A DNA stretch of 64,000 nucleotides from Dehalococcoidia bacterium (GTDB taxonomy: Bacteria; Chloroflexota; Dehalococcoidia; UBA2979), in contig OZ219871.1 of NCBI GenBank assembly GCA_964291495.2, forward strand, positions 1,056,001-1,120,000, read 5' to 3'. The notes under the pieces are model-generated. The model had not been told where the DNA came from. It searched no databases and was given only the letters and a program-made list of their open reading frames with translations. The translations under genes and the position numbers were made by a program. Below, in pieces: positions 1 through 46,228 of the stretch (the first letter of the stretch is position 1; each line of letters starts with the position of its first letter).

Positions 1-822
1 ACGCCCGGCGCGGCGGACTCGGTGCACCTCGAGCCCTGGCCCGAGGCCGACGCGGACGCGATCGACGAGCAGCTTGGGCGCGATATCGCGGTGGTGCAGC
101 GCATGGTCTCGCTCGCCCGCGCCGCCCGCTCGAAGGCGGGCATCAAGGTGCGGCAGCCGCTGGCCTCCGCCGTGCTGACGCCGCGCACGGCTGCCGAGCG
201 CGAGTCGCTGGTCCGCCACACCGAGCAGATCGCCGACGAGTTGAACGTCAAGACCGTGACCATCGAGGAGACGCCCGGAGACCGCGTGCGCTACTCGATC
301 ACGCCCAACCTGCCCGTGCTCGGCCCGATCCACGGCCGCGAGCTGCCGGCCGTGCGCGCCGCCATCGCCGACCTCGACCCTGCCGCCACGGCGGCGACGA
401 TGCGCGCGGGGCAGCCCGTGCAGGCCGGCGAGTACACGATCGAGCCCGGCGGCCTGCGCGTCGCCGTCGAGGCGGCCGAGGGCTGGAGCGCCGCCGAGGA
501 CGGCGGGCACCTCGCGCTCGTCGCGACGGAGCTGAGCGCGGAGCTGGCGGCCGAGGGTCTCGCGCGCGACCTCGTACGCCGCTTGCAGGACCTGCGCCGC
601 GAGACCGGGCTCGACGTGAGCGACCGGATCCACGTCCGCTACGAGGGCGACGACGCGATCGCCGCCGTTGCCGCGGCGCACGGCGACTACGTCGCCGCCG
701 AAACGCTCGCGCTCTCGCTGGAGCGCGCCGCGGACAGCGTGCCCCCGGATGCGACGAGCAGCGAGACGAAGATCGAGGGCCACACCGTCACGCTCGTGCT
801 GTGGAAGGCGGAGCAGGCCTGA
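1..822 (+). CDS. ileS: isoleucyl-tRNA synthetase, C-terminal part (5'-truncated by window edge)
   Basis: VHLEPWP..RSKAGIKVRQPL..IADELNVK..EGLARDLVRRLQDLRRETGLDVSDRI; eukaryote-like (IleRS2) C-terminal domain, no zinc finger. Confidence 0.92.
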   Translation, partial: TPGAADSVHLEPWPEADADAIDEQLGRDIAVVQRMVSLARAARSKAGIKVRQPLASAVLTPRTAAERESLVRHTEQIADELNVKTVTIEETPGDRVRYSITPNLPVLGPIHGRELPAVRAAIADLDPAATAATMRAGQPVQAGEYTIEPGGLRVAVEAAEGWSAAEDGGHLALVATELSAELAAEGLARDLVRRLQDLRRETGLDVSDRIHVRYEGDDAIAAVAAAHGDYVAAETLALSLERAADSVPPDATSSETKIEGHTVTLVLWKAEQA

Positions 823-41408: not shown

Positions 41409-44171
41409 CTAGCTGATCTCCGCCAGCGACTCCTCAAGGCCTTGGAGGCGCGAGGAGGCGGTCGCGAGGCGCTCCTCCTCGCGGGCGACGACGGCGGCGG
41501 GGGCGCGCGTGCGGAACTGCTCGTTCGCGAGCTTCGCGCCGAGCTTCCGCACCTCGTCCTGCGCCTCGCCGATCTGCTTGCCCAGCCGCGCGCGCTCCGC
41601 CTCGAGGTCGAAGAGGCCCGCCATCGGCAGCACGACGCGGCCGACCGGCAGCACGGCGGTCACGACGCCCTCGGACGGCGCGTCCGAGGAGCCCGCCACG
41701 ACGTGCAGCGGGCGCGCCCGCGCGAGCTGCCCGATCGCCGCCGCGAGGTCGCCCGCCGCCTCCGCCGCGCCGTCGGCGACGACGTAGGCCTCGACCCAGC
41801 GGCCGGCCTCGACGCGCTTGGCGGCGCGCTCGTTGCGGATGGCGCGCACGAAGTCCTGCACCGCCGCGAGGTCGCGCTCGGCAGCCTCGTCGTGGCGAGC
41901 GGTGTCGGCCACGGGGTAGCGCGCGACGATCAGCTGCGGCGCGCCGTCCGGGTCCGGGCGCGCCTCGGCGAGGCGCTGCCAGATCTCCTCGGTGACGAAG
42001 GGCATGAAGGGGTGCAGCAGCCGCAGCACGCGATCGAGGACGTGCGCCGCGACCGCGAGCGGGACGCCGTCGCCCTCGCGCACGCGCAGCTTCGCCAGCT
42101 CCAGGTACCAGTCGGCGAATTCGTCCCAGAAGAAGTCGCGCGTCTGGCGCAGCGCCTCGGCGAGCTGGTAGGAGCGCAGCAACTCGTCGGCGAGCCCGAC
42201 CGTCCGCTCCAGCCGCGAGAGCACCCAGCGGTCCTCGCGCCGCAGCCGCGGGTCGCCCACCGGCGGCAGCTCGAGGTCGGCGTCCGGCCCCGCGAGCGTG
42301 CGCACGAGGCGCGCGGCGTTCCAGAGCTTGTTCGCGAAGTTGCGGCCCGCCTCGACGCGGTCGTCGGTGATGCGCTGATCGTTGCCGGGGCTGGTGCCGG
42401 AGATCAGCGCGTAGCGCAGCGCGTCCGTGCCGTACTGCTCGATCACGCTCAGCGGGTCGACGACGTTGCCGAAGGACTTGGACATCTTGCGCCCGTCGGG
42501 CGCGCGCACCAGGCCGTGCAGGTAGACCGTCTCGAAGGGGATATCGCCGCCCTCGAAGCCGCGCATGTTGTAGAGCGAGAGCATGATCATGCGCGCGACC
42601 CAGAAGAAGATGATGTCGTAGCCCGTCTCCATCACCTGTGTCGGGTAGAAGCGCGCGAGGTCCTCCGCGTCCTCGTCGGGCCAGCCGAGCGTCGAGTGCG
42701 GCCAGAGGCCAGACGAGAACCAGGTGTCGAGGGTGTCCTCGTCCTGGCGCAGCGGGCCGTCGCAGGTTGGGCAGGCGTCGGGGTCCTCGACGGCGGCGAT
42801 GGTCTCGCTGCAGTCCCCGGAGTCGCAGTACCAGACGGGGATGCGGTGGCCCCACCAGATCTGGCGGCTGATGCACCAGTCGCGGATGTTCTCCATCCAG
42901 TGCAGGTAGGTGCGCTCGAAGCGCTTTGGCACGAAGGCGATGCGCCCGTCGCGCACCGCCGCGATCGCCGGCTCGGCCAGCGGCCCGACGTTCACCCACC
43001 ATTGCTCCGAGACGATCGGTTCCACCACCGCGCCCGAGCGCTGCGAGTGTCCGACCGCGTGCGTGTACGGCTCGATCTTCTCGATCAGCCCCTTCGCCTC
43101 GAGGTCCTCGACGACGCGGTCGCGCGCCTCGAAGCGGTCGAGGCCGGCGTAGCGCCCGGCGTGGTCGTTGAGCGTCCCGTCGGGCGCGAGGATGTTGAGC
43201 GTCTCCAGCCCGTGCCGCTCGCCGATCTCGAAGTCGACCTGGTCGTGGCCGGGCGTGACCTTGAGCGCGCCCGACCCGGCCTCGATCTCGATCGCCTCGT
43301 CGGCGATCACGGGGATCGGGCGGTCCGAGGTCGGCTCGAGGACCATGCGCCCGATCAGGTGCCGCCAGCGATCGTCCTCGGGGTGCACGGCCACGGCGGT
43401 GTCGGCCGGGATCGTCTCCGGCCGCGTGGTCGCGATCACGATGTAGTCCTCGGCGGGCGTGGCGGGCTGCGCCCGCTCCCCCTCACCCCGGGCCTCTCCC
43501 TCCGGGGGAGCGGGGGCCGGATCGCCGTCCTCGCGAACGGCTGGGTAGCGCACGTACCAGAACGCGGACTCGACGTCGCGGTACTCGACCTCGAGGTCGG
43601 AGAGCGCGGTCTGGCCGACGGGGTCCCAGTTGATCATCCGCTCGCCGCGGAAGATCAGGCCGTCCTCGTAGAGGTTCACGAAGGTCTGGCGGACGGCCCG
43701 CTGGCGCGCCTCGTCGAGCGTGAAGGCCTCGCGCTCCCAGTCCGCCGAGGCGCCGAGCCGGCGGTGCTGCTCGGCGATGCGCGCGCGCGAGGCGTTGACG
43801 AAGTCCCAGACGCGATCGAGGAAGGCCTCGCGGCCGATGTCGTGGCGGCTCACGCCCTCCTCGTCGAGCTGCCGCTCGACGAGCGCGTTGACGGCGATCG
43901 CGGCGTGGTCGACGCCGGGCACCCAGACGGTGTCGTCGCCGAGCATGCGGTGCCAGCGGATCAGCGCGTCCTCGACGGCGGCGGTGAGGGCGTGGCCCAT
44001 GTGCAGCTCGCCGGTGAGGTTGGGCGGCGGCATGATCACCGTGAACGGCCGCTCGCCGCCCCGCGGCTTGAAGCAGCCGCCGTCCTCCCAGCCGCGGTAG
44101 ATGCGCTCCTCGACCTCCGAGGGGTCGTAGGCGCTGCGCATCTCCTCGCTGGCGCCGTTCTCGCTCGTCAT
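41409..44171 (-). CDS. valS: valyl-tRNA synthetase
   Basis: PPPNLTGELHMGH, TTRPET, DWCISRQIWWGHRIP, KMSKS, C-terminal coiled coil. Confidence 0.98.
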   Translation of the reverse strand: MTSENGASEEMRSAYDPSEVEERIYRGWEDGGCFKPRGGERPFTVIMPPPNLTGELHMGHALTAAVEDALIRWHRMLGDDTVWVPGVDHAAIAVNALVERQLDEEGVSRHDIGREAFLDRVWDFVNASRARIAEQHRRLGASADWEREAFTLDEARQRAVRQTFVNLYEDGLIFRGERMINWDPVGQTALSDLEVEYRDVESAFWYVRYPAVREDGDPAPAPPEGEARGEGERAQPATPAEDYIVIATTRPETIPADTAVAVHPEDDRWRHLIGRMVLEPTSDRPIPVIADEAIEIEAGSGALKVTPGHDQVDFEIGERHGLETLNILAPDGTLNDHAGRYAGLDRFEARDRVVEDLEAKGLIEKIEPYTHAVGHSQRSGAVVEPIVSEQWWVNVGPLAEPAIAAVRDGRIAFVPKRFERTYLHWMENIRDWCISRQIWWGHRIPVWYCDSGDCSETIAAVEDPDACPTCDGPLRQDEDTLDTWFSSGLWPHSTLGWPDEDAEDLARFYPTQVMETGYDIIFFWVARMIMLSLYNMRGFEGGDIPFETVYLHGLVRAPDGRKMSKSFGNVVDPLSVIEQYGTDALRYALISGTSPGNDQRITDDRVEAGRNFANKLWNAARLVRTLAGPDADLELPPVGDPRLRREDRWVLSRLERTVGLADELLRSYQLAEALRQTRDFFWDEFADWYLELAKLRVREGDGVPLAVAAHVLDRVLRLLHPFMPFVTEEIWQRLAEARPDPDGAPQLIVARYPVADTARHDEAAERDLAAVQDFVRAIRNERAAKRVEAGRWVEAYVVADGAAEAAGDLAAAIGQLARARPLHVVAGSSDAPSEGVVTAVLPVGRVVLPMAGLFDLEAERARLGKQIGEAQDEVRKLGAKLANEQFRTRAPAAVVAREEERLATASSRLQGLEESLAEIS
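43476..43524. repeat. degenerate hairpin-repeat copy lying in-frame inside valS
   Basis: CTCCCCCTCACCCCGGGCCTCTCCCTCCGGGGGAGCGGGGGCCGGATCG vs intergenic CTCCCCCTCACCCCCGCCCTCTCCCCAGGGAGAGGGGGCCGGATCG. Confidence 0.8.
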
Positions 44172-44207
44172 CGCGCGCTCCTCGGGCAGCCGTCCGGTTC
44201 GCCGGGC

Positions 44208-44232
44208 AAGCAAAACCCCGCCGAAGCGGGGC
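44208..44232 (-). terminator. attenuator-type terminator in the valS leader
   Basis: minus strand GCCCCGC-TTCG-GCGGGGT followed by TTTGCTT. Confidence 0.7.
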
Positions 44233-44264
44233 GTGGGCGACCGGCACGGCCCTCGCTGGGCCGG

Positions 44265-44300
44265 CTAGCCGCCGCTGGCTACAGCTACGTTCCCGTTCAC
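44265..44300 (-). CDS. putative valS leader peptide (MNGNVAVASGG)
   Basis: GTG AAC GGG AAC GTA GCT GTA GCC AGC GGC GGC TAG, starting 7 nt after -10; two rare GTA Val codons. Confidence 0.62.
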   Translation of the reverse strand: MNGNVAVASGG

Positions 44301-44307
44301 GCCCTCG

Positions 44308-44337
44308 ATGGTAGGCAGCGGTCGGCGGAGGGGTCAA
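44308..44337 (-). promoter_or_regulatory. sigma70-type promoter of the valS leader
   Basis: TTGACC-18 bp-TACCAT. Confidence 0.72.
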
Positions 44338-44354
44338 CGCACGCCCCGCGGCTA

Positions 44355-44900
44355 TCACTCCCCCAGCCGCCGCCCCACCTCCTCCACCACCCGCGCTACG
44401 TACCGCGCGCGCGTCTCCGCTGTCCGAGCGCGATCGAGGAAGGCAACCATGCCCTCGCGCTGCGCCTCGGTCAGCGACCCGAACGCCTCGAGGCCGCCGG
44501 GGAGGGCTCCGAGGGCGCTCGAGAGGTCAGCGGGGAGGGCAAGCGCGGGTTCGGGCTCGGCGGGCCAGACTTCGAGGTCGACGGTGTCGCCGAGGCCGAT
44601 GCCCGCGGCGGCGCGTACCTCGCCGTTGAGGAAGAGGCGATGGGCGCCGCCGCCGCGCGGGGTGAGGCGCGTGCGGAACGGGTGGCCGTTCGCAAGGCCC
44701 TCGACGCGGGGGTGGCGCGCCGGCGGATCGCCGGCGAGGGCGCGGCTCGCCTCGGCGGGCACGTCGACGCAGTAGTTCGGGCCGACGCGGTAGATCGCGG
44801 CGCTGAAGCGCCGACGTTCGGACGAGGCGCCGTGCGCGGCGGGCTGCGCGGGGGCGGCCGAGCGCCTACTCTCGTCGGAGTGCGAACGGGGGGACGGCAT
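44355..44900 (-). CDS. YdeI/OmpD-associated (DUF1905 + OmdA) family protein
   Basis: VDVP..VEGLANGHPFRTRL..VRAAAGIGLGDTVDLE..LPADL..ARTAETRARY; start uncertain. Confidence 0.8.
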   Translation of the reverse strand: MPSPRSHSDESRRSAAPAQPAAHGASSERRRFSAAIYRVGPNYCVDVPAEASRALAGDPPARHPRVEGLANGHPFRTRLTPRGGGAHRLFLNGEVRAAAGIGLGDTVDLEVWPAEPEPALALPADLSSALGALPGGLEAFGSLTEAQREGMVAFLDRARTAETRARYVARVVEEVGRRLGE

Positions 44901-45420
44901 GGAGCTGCGCGGCCTCGGCTACCCGGCCATCATCTGCAAGGACATGCAGCGGAGCATAGAGTTCTACTCCAAGCTCGGCATGCGCCACCTCTACACCGAG
45001 CCCAACCGCGACGACGCCGAGTCCGTCCAGGCCCTGCTCCACGCCGGCGGCGACGCCTACCTGCTGCTCGTCGGACCGACCCACGAGGGCGTCCGCATCG
45101 CCGAGGCCAGCCTCGGCGTCGGCTCGATGCAGTACCTCACGCTGCAGGTCTCCGCCGCCTTCATGGACCAGGCCTACTTCGAGCTCTCCACCGCCGGCGT
45201 GCGCGGCAGCGAGGAGATCCGGCGAGGCTACGAGCGGCTCGTCTTCCTCGAGGACCCGGACAACGTCCTGATCGCGCTCGTCGCCTGGTCGACCGAGCCT
45301 CCGGCCGGCCTCGACCGCGCCGAGGTGCTCGCGCGCGCCGGTGAGATCAAGGACGCCGAGGGCGCGCCGTTCGTCGAGGACGAGCACATCCAGCAGGCGA
45401 TCGCCGCGCTGAGCGGCTGA
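44899..45420 (+). CDS. VOC/glyoxalase family protein
   Basis: KDMQRSIEFYSKLG, GSMQYLTL, VFLEDPDN. Confidence 0.78.
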   Translation: MELRGLGYPAIICKDMQRSIEFYSKLGMRHLYTEPNRDDAESVQALLHAGGDAYLLLVGPTHEGVRIAEASLGVGSMQYLTLQVSAAFMDQAYFELSTAGVRGSEEIRRGYERLVFLEDPDNVLIALVAWSTEPPAGLDRAEVLARAGEIKDAEGAPFVEDEHIQQAIAALSG

Positions 45421-45442
45421 TCGCCGGACGAGGAGCGCGCCG

Positions 45443-46228
45443 ATGCCGTATGCCGAGGTCCGCGACACCCGCACCTGGTACGAGCTGCGCGGCGAGGGCC
45501 CGCCGCTGCTCTTCATCAGCGGCAGCGGCGGCCCGCTCTGGTCGATGCCCGGCACGCTCGACCCGCTGATCGAGCGCTTCCGCGTGCTCGCCTACGACAA
45601 GCGCGGCCTCGGACGCTGCGAGGCGCCCGCGACCGTCTGGGAGATGGCGGACTTCGCCGACGACGCCGCGGCGCTGCTCGACGTCGTCGGCTGGGAGCGC
45701 TGCGACGTGGTTGGCGCCTCGTTCGGCGGGATGATCGCGCAGGAGCTGGCGCTGCGGCACCCGCAGCGCGTCGCGAAGCTGGTGCTGTGCTGTACCTCGC
45801 CCGGCGGCGGGTACGCCTCCTACCCGCTGCACACGCTGCTCGACCTGCCTCCCGCCGAGCGCGCCGCGCGGCGCGTCGCGGTCAACGACCTGCGCCACGA
45901 CGCCGCCTGGCAGGCCGCGCACCCCGAGGAGTACGCCGAGCTCGCGGAGCGCTCGATCGGCGGCTACGCGAGCGAGGATGACGCGGCTCGCCACCGCCGC
46001 CTGCTCGCGGCGCGCTCGCGCCTCGACACGATCGAGCGCCTGCCGCGGATCGCGAGCCCGACGCTGATCGCGGGTGGACGCCACGACGGCATAGCGCCGC
46101 TGCGCAACCAGCAGCTGCTGCACGAGCGCATCCCCGGCTCGCGCCTCGAGCTGTTCGAGGGCGGACACGGCTTCATGCGCGAGGACCCGCGCGCCCTCGA
46201 GGTGATCGCGGACTGGCTTACCGCCTAG
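45443..46228 (+). CDS. alpha/beta hydrolase
   Basis: YDKRGLG, GASFGG nucleophile, GRHDGIAP, GGHGF. Confidence 0.9.
   Translation: MPYAEVRDTRTWYELRGEGPPLLFISGSGGPLWSMPGTLDPLIERFRVLAYDKRGLGRCEAPATVWEMADFADDAAALLDVVGWERCDVVGASFGGMIAQELALRHPQRVAKLVLCCTSPGGGYASYPLHTLLDLPPAERAARRVAVNDLRHDAAWQAAHPEEYAELAERSIGGYASEDDAARHRRLLAARSRLDTIERLPRIASPTLIAGGRHDGIAPLRNQQLLHERIPGSRLELFEGGHGFMREDPRALEVIADWLTA

Follow-up and report, generated by a model that had tools for sequence, protein, structure and literature searches.

A probable leader-peptide attenuator with a GTA-rich reading frame ahead of valS in a family of Dehalococcoidia

In a 64,000-nucleotide (nt) stretch of contig OZ219871.1 from a Dehalococcoidia bacterium (the window, from whose first letter positions are counted below), the valyl-tRNA synthetase gene valS is preceded by a short leader that we consider likely to be a ribosome-mediated (leader-peptide) transcription attenuator, dedicated to valS and sensing charged tRNA-Val. 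Comparison with relatives argues for this reading and suggests an attenuator of atypical build, of the leaderless type, relying on the rarest Val codon and having two tandem hairpins with no detectable antiterminator. A preliminary description, made from the letters alone, had proposed a compact Val-tRNA sensor on a leaderless upstream open reading frame (uORF) regulating valyl-tRNA synthetase (ValRS). The parts, their GTA bias and their conservation support the core of that proposal, but not the three-helix mechanism that came with it. The parts are these:

44332..44337, minus strand: -35 hexamer TTGACC, the only sigma-70-like site in 43000-46000; most relatives have the same hexamer
44308..44313, minus strand: -10 hexamer TACCAT (TANNNT type), separated from the -35 hexamer by an 18-nt spacer
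44265..44300, minus strand: leader uORF, GTG AAC GGG AAC GTA GCT GTA GCC AGC GGC GGC TAG, 11 codons and TAG (MNGNVAVASGG)
44280..44288, minus strand: putative regulatory codons GTA-GCT-GTA (Val-Ala-Val), with GTA at 44288-44286 and 44282-44280
44236..44273, minus strand: hairpin A, 38 nt, from minimum-free-energy (MFE) folds; outer helix GGCGGCT/GGTCGCC, inner helix CCGGCCC/GGGCCG, loop AGCGA
44211..44232, minus strand: intrinsic terminator GCCCCGC-TTCG-GCGGGGT followed by TTTG; stem-loop at 44232-44215, 3 nt past hairpin A
44178..44183, minus strand: valS Shine-Dalgarno (SD) sequence GAGGAG, 6 nt ahead of the ATG
41409..44171, minus strand: valS, valyl-tRNA synthetase, 920 aa (Pfam tRNA-synt_1, Anticodon_1 and Val_tRNA-synt_C), with its ATG at 44171

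A consensus scan of the 3 kb at 43000-46000, on both strands, returned one promoter-like site (shuffle mean, 0.1) and one terminator-like site (shuffle mean, 0.4), both of them in the leader. The promoter, its spacer, the GTG-started uORF and the terminator had all been given in the preliminary description, and each is present where it had been placed. No recognisable promoter of its own was found for valS behind the terminator in the same scan, so valS would be made only from read-through transcripts; the SD sequence lies 28 nt past the terminator end. The uORF starts 7 nt past the -10 box and is probably leaderless. At its other end the outer helix of hairpin A takes in the last two Gly codons and the T of the TAG stop. 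The helix CGGCCC/GGGCCG named in the preliminary description is real but is merely the inner part of this larger hairpin (44273-44236), whose outer helix GGCGGCU/GGUCGCC had been overlooked. Rfam searching of 43800-44800 gave no T-box, in agreement with the earlier statement that there is none, and no other family with a meaningful score at E<=10; at the gathering threshold the loci of 12 relatives gave 0 matches.

In the genomes searched, the unit is confined to one family and to one gene. ValRS is present in 40 of 41 relatives, and valS upstream regions were compared for 29 of 30 loci, the other (L011) ending at a contig edge. Promoter, GTA-bearing short ORF, hairpin and terminator occur together in all 17 same-genus loci compared and in three of the five loci from other genera of the family; among the 29 loci, the unit is absent from the valS upstream regions of other families. 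A covariance model (R1) built from 21 leaders was searched against 99 genomes of the order, which consists of this single family, with 21 genera. It matches 70 genomes in 17 genera, with one strong match per genome, and all matches with E below 1e-4 sit directly upstream of valS. The valS N-terminus lies within 420 nt downstream of 51 of the 54 matches that were fetched; the remaining three, all weak secondary matches, fall at gene ends or within a dehydrogenase gene and were set aside. Besides the window's own, 17 same-genus matches adjoin valS matches by coordinates. When a sample of 151 genomes of the class was searched, all seven family members matched, while the 144 genomes of other families gave no true match and only two weak ones, both in dehydrogenase coding regions. 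Among the weak matches we rejected L061, L105, L107, L194 and L195, which fall on gene ends or on GGCGGC-rich coding sequence of dehydrogenases. The model found no second copy of the leader in the window's own genome.

The gene upstream of the unit varies among relatives, being replaced by other genes or by repeats, while promoter, uORF, hairpin, terminator and valS stay together; the terminator is therefore not that of the upstream gene. In the window that gene (44355-44900, minus strand) encodes a 181-aa DUF1905 plus OmdA/YdeI-type protein and ends 18 nt before the -35 box. In five same-genus relatives (L004, L005, L006, L008 and L009) its place, the stretch of 150-300 nt next upstream of the valS promoter, is taken by at least two tandem units of ~65 nt that contain gtaagtgcgagcccgatgactaacaaat and look like a small repeat or mobile element family.

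Of the 70 leaders, 68 entered the uORF analysis and gave 59 distinct sequences; L056 and L073 were left out of the geometry table since the search pattern missed their terminators, and Val-run uORFs are visible in both. The distinct uORFs hold 214 Val codons, 196 of them GTA (92%), with 12 GTC, 4 GTG and 2 GTT. The window's own genome (3.08 Mb in 8 contigs, 71% G+C) uses GTA for 1626 of 55398 Val codons (2.9%), as counted in 1704 long ORFs, which bears out the rarity noticed earlier from the neighbouring genes, and the correctly framed valS genes of 21 relatives use it for 10 of 1517 Val codons (0.7%). Relatives carry two to five GTA codons in a row. The number of Val codons per uORF runs from one to eight (mode, 3), the first GTA falls at codon 3 to 15, and one to 10 sense codons come after the last Val. 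Outside the Val run the peptide drifts freely, with MNLEVVR and MDIQRIRVAAAPVTLVLVVVR as the extremes.

The spacing of promoter and start codon is also kept. Of the 59 distinct uORFs, 58 have a TANNNT hexamer 4-10 nt ahead of their start, and the distance from -10 box to start is 6 or 7 nt in 41 of the 59, the spacing typical of leaderless transcripts. A frame test that presupposed no ORF located the GTA pair by its letters and then took any TANNNT followed, after 5-9 nt, by ATG, GTG or TTG. The path from start to GTA pair was open and in frame in all 66 testable leaders, and 67 of the 69 combinations of -10 box, 5-9 nt and start were in frame with the GTA pair (expected, 1/3); the test gave no verdict for L052, lacking a TANNNT, or for L099, lacking a GTA pair. 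From these comparisons we judge that the uORF is probably read as codons.

The tRNA-Val genes called by ARAGORN in the window's own genome have the anticodons CAC, GAC (twice) and TAC. One of the GAC calls (C5:318040-318131) is 92 nt long, GC-rich and unlike the other tRNA-Val genes; it has the look of a false positive within coding DNA. The gene for tRNA-Val(UAC), whose anticodon matches GUA, is single-copy, and decoding of GUA would depend mainly on this one tRNA. The sensor probably reads the UAC isoacceptor of tRNA-Val.

Hairpin A is the more variable of the two hairpins. In an alignment of 70 leaders (69 distinct) fitted to the covariance model, all 13 of its pairs change on both sides across the distinct sequences. 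For the whole structure, 96.2% of 1329 cells are standard pairs and 15 of 20 pairs change on both sides, values that none of 500 shuffles attained, and sliding the partners by 1-3 columns lowers pairing to 40-52%. An independent check agrees, the arms of hairpin A being far more complementary than shuffles (mean z -3.45, n=58). The alignment of valS upstream regions for conserved Val codons and covarying helices that had been suggested with the preliminary description thus came out in its favour: the unit is conserved across 17 genera and hairpin A covaries. The terminator stem is kept in all 70 aligned leaders and is nearly invariant; since other terminators of these genomes share its CCCCGC...GCGGGG core (seen at L105 and L107), it is probably the local terminator consensus.

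Hairpin A overlaps the end of the uORF, whose last codons and stop lie in it. The last Val codon begins 3-10 nt (mostly 5-9) ahead of the first paired base of hairpin A, and in 58 of the 59 distinct leaders a linker of 0-5 nt separates hairpin A from the terminator. No such fixed place is kept by the stop codon. It comes 6, 15, 18, 21, 27 or 33 nt past the last Val, which puts it at the hairpin A foot, within the 5' arm or close to the loop. Its distance to the terminator ahead is 23-54 nt in 58 of the 59; for L022 a mis-parsed terminator gave 68 nt. Judged by these distances, what is conserved is the position, relative to hairpin A, of a ribosome awaiting Val-tRNA, and not the position of one that has finished.

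Some further features of the leader were noticed. Where the loop of hairpin A meets the 3' arm (44247-44257, minus strand, in the window), about two-thirds of distinct leaders, counted by eye, have an SD-like CGAGG or GAGG. This motif frequently pairs with a CCTC of the 5' arm, and no start codon consistently follows it. Just before the valS SD sequence (44184-44190, minus strand) the window has GCTGC, where its closest relatives (L003-L009) have GCTAC, complementary to the GTAGC of the Val codons. A long-range pairing of the uORF with the valS ribosome-binding region is thus possible; the complementarity is not seen in the L012 group. In the structures examined we noticed no conserved pairing with the valS SD sequence, though no search was aimed at it.

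The class also has another kind of control at valS. In another family of Dehalococcoidia a T-box lies directly upstream of valS (L027:4303-4562, minus strand; 81.3 bits, E 3e-16, just under the Rfam cut-off of 93). The window's own genome has three weak T-box matches, all under the same cut-off: one of 27.8 bits (L189:1501-1798, that is, C5:1053171-1053468), ~2.5 kb before the window start, ahead of a class-I synthetase gene that is probably ileS and whose 3' end reaches window positions 1-336; one of 35.8 bits (L188:1501-1599) directly upstream of an anthranilate synthase gene (trpE); and one of 24.4 bits (L190:1501-1612) directly upstream of a ThrRS-like gene (thrS). Whole-genome scans for siblings of the valS leader, one anchored on terminators and one on promoters, looked for promoter-proximal short ORFs with clustered codons. 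Besides the valS leader, they returned a His leader and, in each scan, one probably spurious site, not the same one. The promoter-anchored scan, for clustered rare codons, gave three sites in all, two of them being these leaders with their cognate genes.

The His leader lies outside the window (L191:2150-2540, contig C6 at about 532750-533140, minus strand) and has a promoter-like TTGCCC-17-TACGAT, a 30-codon uORF and a terminator. Its four His codons are spaced HAHSH and are all CAT, a triplet used for 11.8% of His codons. The gene behind it encodes a 342-aa protein of the tRNA-synt_His family without the anticodon-binding domain, and is thus hisZ-like; among 30 family loci of this gene, 26 have a His-rich uORF of leaderless type ahead of it. 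Conserved Pro-Ser-Arg codons of the His leader copy the 3' arm of its terminator and can pair with the 5' arm, which suggests a classical antiterminator design. Analogous leaders had been suspected before ileS, leuS and ilvB, but the sole sibling found in this genome is the one before the hisZ-like gene, and the probable ileS has a weak T-box match. The genome thus seems to mix T-boxes and leader peptides.

For the valS leader we propose the following course of events. Transcription would start at or just ahead of the start codon of the uORF, and a ribosome translating the 11 codons would have to decode the GUA codons. When charged tRNA-Val is plentiful, the ribosome would finish and leave, hairpin A and the terminator would fold, and most transcripts would end there. 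When it is scarce, the ribosome would halt on the GUA codons, next to the hairpin A foot; termination would then become weaker and more ValRS would be made. We infer this direction, in which stalling leads to read-through, because of the logic of known synthetase leaders and the presence of a T-box at valS in another family of the class; it is drawn by analogy with the pheST, trp and his attenuators as well as with that T-box.

As to how a stalled ribosome might overcome the terminator, our preferred guess is a steric one, hairpin-bridged antitermination that needs no antiterminator. Hairpin A joins its own strands, which would leave a ribosome at its 5' foot only 0-5 nt plus the width of a helix from the 5' arm of the terminator. 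Folding of the terminator in the exit channel would then pull polymerase and ribosome closer together than they can come, and transcription would read through into valS; the minimal spacing in collided ribosome-polymerase complexes is about 34 nt. We prefer this guess because it accounts both for the conserved spacings and for the missing alternative helix. Taken by itself it is doubtful, and if the leader is granted to be an attenuator its chances improve only slightly. The nearest precedent is found in the E. coli pyrBI and pyrE attenuators, which have no antiterminator and in which a ribosome close behind the polymerase blocks the terminator hairpin. Like them, the valS leader would control a terminator without an antiterminator helix. 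Unlike them, with their leader ORF running into or up to the terminator, its uORF stops 23-54 nt short of it in nearly all distinct leaders, and closeness would come about only via hairpin A.

Several observations weigh against an attenuator. The alternative pairing expected of a classical one was sought in folds with a ribosome mask, its footprint taken to extend 14 nt beyond the A-site codon's first base. In 14 leaders with the ribosome stalled at the first or last Val codon, or standing at the stop, the terminator stayed in the MFE fold always. In nascent RNA lacking the 3' arm of the terminator, the mean pairing probability of the 5' arm over 59 leaders differs little between states, being 0.42 for free RNA, 0.47 with a stalled ribosome and 0.52 with a ribosome at the stop. 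Pairing of the loop and 3' arm of hairpin A with the terminator 5' arm (2x3) gains no more than in dinucleotide shuffles (mean z -0.01, n=59), and neither the hairpin A 5' arm with the terminator 5' arm (1x3; z -0.37) nor the hairpin A 3' arm with the terminator 3' arm (2x4; z -0.25) exceeds chance level. A classical antiterminator helix is not detectable in the valS leader, and with no alternative helix the RNA does not tell in which direction the response goes. The steric mechanism offered in its stead is our own inference. Fitting the structure alignment to a covariance model favours structure. As to distribution, 29 of the 99 family genomes gave no match, including all searched members of four genera, and in one high-GC genus, g35, the leaders (L099 and L226) are weakened and hold just one GTA. 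Public RNA shows neither a transcription start nor a premature 3' end: low-depth Logan contigs from three runs that contain small shares of the stretch, which by their nature cannot reveal starts, ends or levels, have a few pieces over 44252-44439 (in one run) and none over 44111-44251.

Three of the four genera without a match have small or low-GC genomes, and the two inspected have 31-45% G+C and no visible leader. The low-GC genera g33 and g26 lack the leader. In a streamlined relative (L024, of the low-G+C genus g7) valS starts 8 nt past a TATATA box, with no visible SD sequence or leader, and may itself be leaderless.

The three-helix attenuator of the preliminary description, in which a stalled ribosome frees the loop and 3' half of hairpin A to pair with the 5' arm of the terminator, is in our estimate unlikely. 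Its antiterminator strand AGCG(A)GGGC(C)GTG is indeed present and can pair with CACGCCCCGCT in the window. When the whole 5' arm of hairpin A is masked, weak 2:3-type folds of -4 to -16 kcal/mol appear, which is the range of the E. coli trp antiterminator, and the His leader in the same family has a clear antiterminator copy, so that the clade does use the classical design. But the complementarity equals that of shuffles, in the window itself (z -0.01) as in the mean, with 15% of the 59 distinct leaders below -1 and 14% above +1. In some lineages, L058 and L077 among them, pairing between the equivalent segment and the terminator arm is not possible. Nor would a ribosome on the last Val codon open enough of the hairpin: it reaches the outer helix only, and the inner hairpin, in which the proposed antiterminator strand lies and which is ~9 kcal/mol better, stays folded. 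The proposed antiterminator is chance complementarity in GC-rich RNA; the 3' arm of hairpin A and the 5' arm of the terminator are both C-rich. Folding of the alternatives, which had been suggested as a check, thus gave the three-helix switch no support, the terminator persisting under all masks. Three other devices were tried and rejected: a longer terminator stem reaching into hairpin A could form in the L012 group alone and not in the window; kissing of the CGAGG loop motif with the terminator loop fits L001 and L048 and fails in L012, L021 and L058; and a second ORF started by the GAGG motif finds no start codon in the L012 group.

The response might also run the other way, read-through requiring a ribosome that translates through hairpin A and opens it as polymerase makes the terminator. 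The output of valS would then track translation capacity, and a stall at GUA would lower it. The 5' arm of the terminator does pair most with upstream RNA when the ribosome is at the stop, and the default fold of the untranslated leader holds both hairpins. The rise over free RNA is small, however, and inconsistent between leaders. It is also the stop whose position varies, by 6-33 nt past the last Val, whereas the Val run is fixed relative to hairpin A, which points to the stalled state as the one selected. Making less ValRS when Val-tRNA is short would moreover be a self-reinforcing loss, opposite to the logic of the relative's valS T-box, and we rate this reversed response below even the three-helix scheme. 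That the leader senses nothing, being an independent small transcript or peptide gene, or a leaky terminator that fixes valS at a low level, with the GTA run serving as an RNA motif or slowing translation, strikes us as very improbable. In its favour, the whole 141-nt leader has an unremarkable fold stability, no better than shuffles (z -1.0). Yet the peptide is not conserved apart from its Val run, that run is always in frame with a start at promoter distance, and the element turned up nowhere but at valS; that a codon making up 0.7-2.9% elsewhere should reach 92% here, for the very amino acid of the synthetase, is hard to explain without a sensor. Least credible of all is a protein operator, hairpin A or the hairpin pair mimicking tRNA-Val and binding ValRS for autoregulation, in the manner of E. 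coli thrS. What would suit an operator is the size of the covarying hairpin and the CGAGG that recurs where its loop meets the 3' arm. But the loops vary in length and sequence and have no conserved Val anticodon, the leader does not resemble any of the three genuine tRNA-Val genes in sequence (z -0.24 to 0.02), and the in-frame GTA run is left unexplained.

The attenuator reading, which we continue to prefer, has relatives among known systems. Leader-peptide attenuation of synthetase genes is established for pheST (the pheM leader) in gamma-proteobacteria, and synthetase genes are textbook targets of T-boxes in Firmicutes, where the T-box is the usual control of valS. Like the T-box (RF00230), the leader described here has valS as its target, a terminator and, as proposed, tRNA-Val charging as its signal; it differs in its length (130 nt versus about 220-260 nt) and in that a translating ribosome would do the sensing in place of direct tRNA binding. 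With the trp, his, leu and ilv attenuators it has in common a promoter-proximal leader peptide, a hairpin overlapping the uORF end and a terminator. Those attenuators serve biosynthetic operons with overlapping hairpins, whereas the valS leader has two non-overlapping tandem hairpins and no third pairing. A leaderless leader is on record for ilvBNC of Corynebacterium glutamicum, which reportedly follows a three-hairpin model with overlapping terminator and antiterminator hairpins (PMC11857589).

Attenuators have been predicted upstream of leuS and trpS2 in Streptomyces, the leuS leaders being described with antiterminator and terminator hairpins; valS does not occur in that paper (Seliverstov et al. 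2005, PMC1262725). Like the pheST, leuS and trpS2 leaders, ours has a short ORF with codons for the cognate amino acid and then an intrinsic terminator ahead of the synthetase gene, and by analogy a shortage of charged tRNA would be expected to cause read-through. Unlike them, it belongs to valS and to the phylum Chloroflexota, has an apparently leaderless uORF and uses almost only the rarest codon; against the Streptomyces leuS leaders as described there, it also lacks a detectable antiterminator helix. Leaderless short ORFs with polycysteine runs at cysteine genes of mycobacteria are reported to act on translation (Canestrari et al., 10.1101/834739). They resemble the valS uORF in being leaderless, in having a run of codons for one amino acid and in using ribosome pausing as the signal, and they differ in that the valS leader has a conserved intrinsic terminator between uORF and valS, with the valS SD sequence 28 nt beyond. 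Full-text searching of the literature, with most subscription journals outside its reach, found no valS leader peptide and no leader-peptide attenuation in Chloroflexi; the earlier remark that this was not known to its author as a described valS control system is in keeping with this.

If the attenuator reading is right, valS and the phylum Chloroflexota would join the synthetase genes under leader-peptide control, so far pheST and, by prediction, leuS and trpS. A T-box and a leader peptide would then be doing the same job at valS within one bacterial class, which would make a clean example of one regulator replacing another. That nearly all the Val codons are of the rarest kind suggests tuning to one minor tRNA. 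With its two conserved hairpins and no antiterminator, in a clade that has a classical His leader, the layout raises the question of how a stalled ribosome beats a terminator some 50 nt away, and the steric answer, if true, would be a new, hairpin-bridged coupling of ribosome stalling to termination. The covariance model, for its part, could annotate the leader in about 70 genomes, where Rfam has no family to name it.

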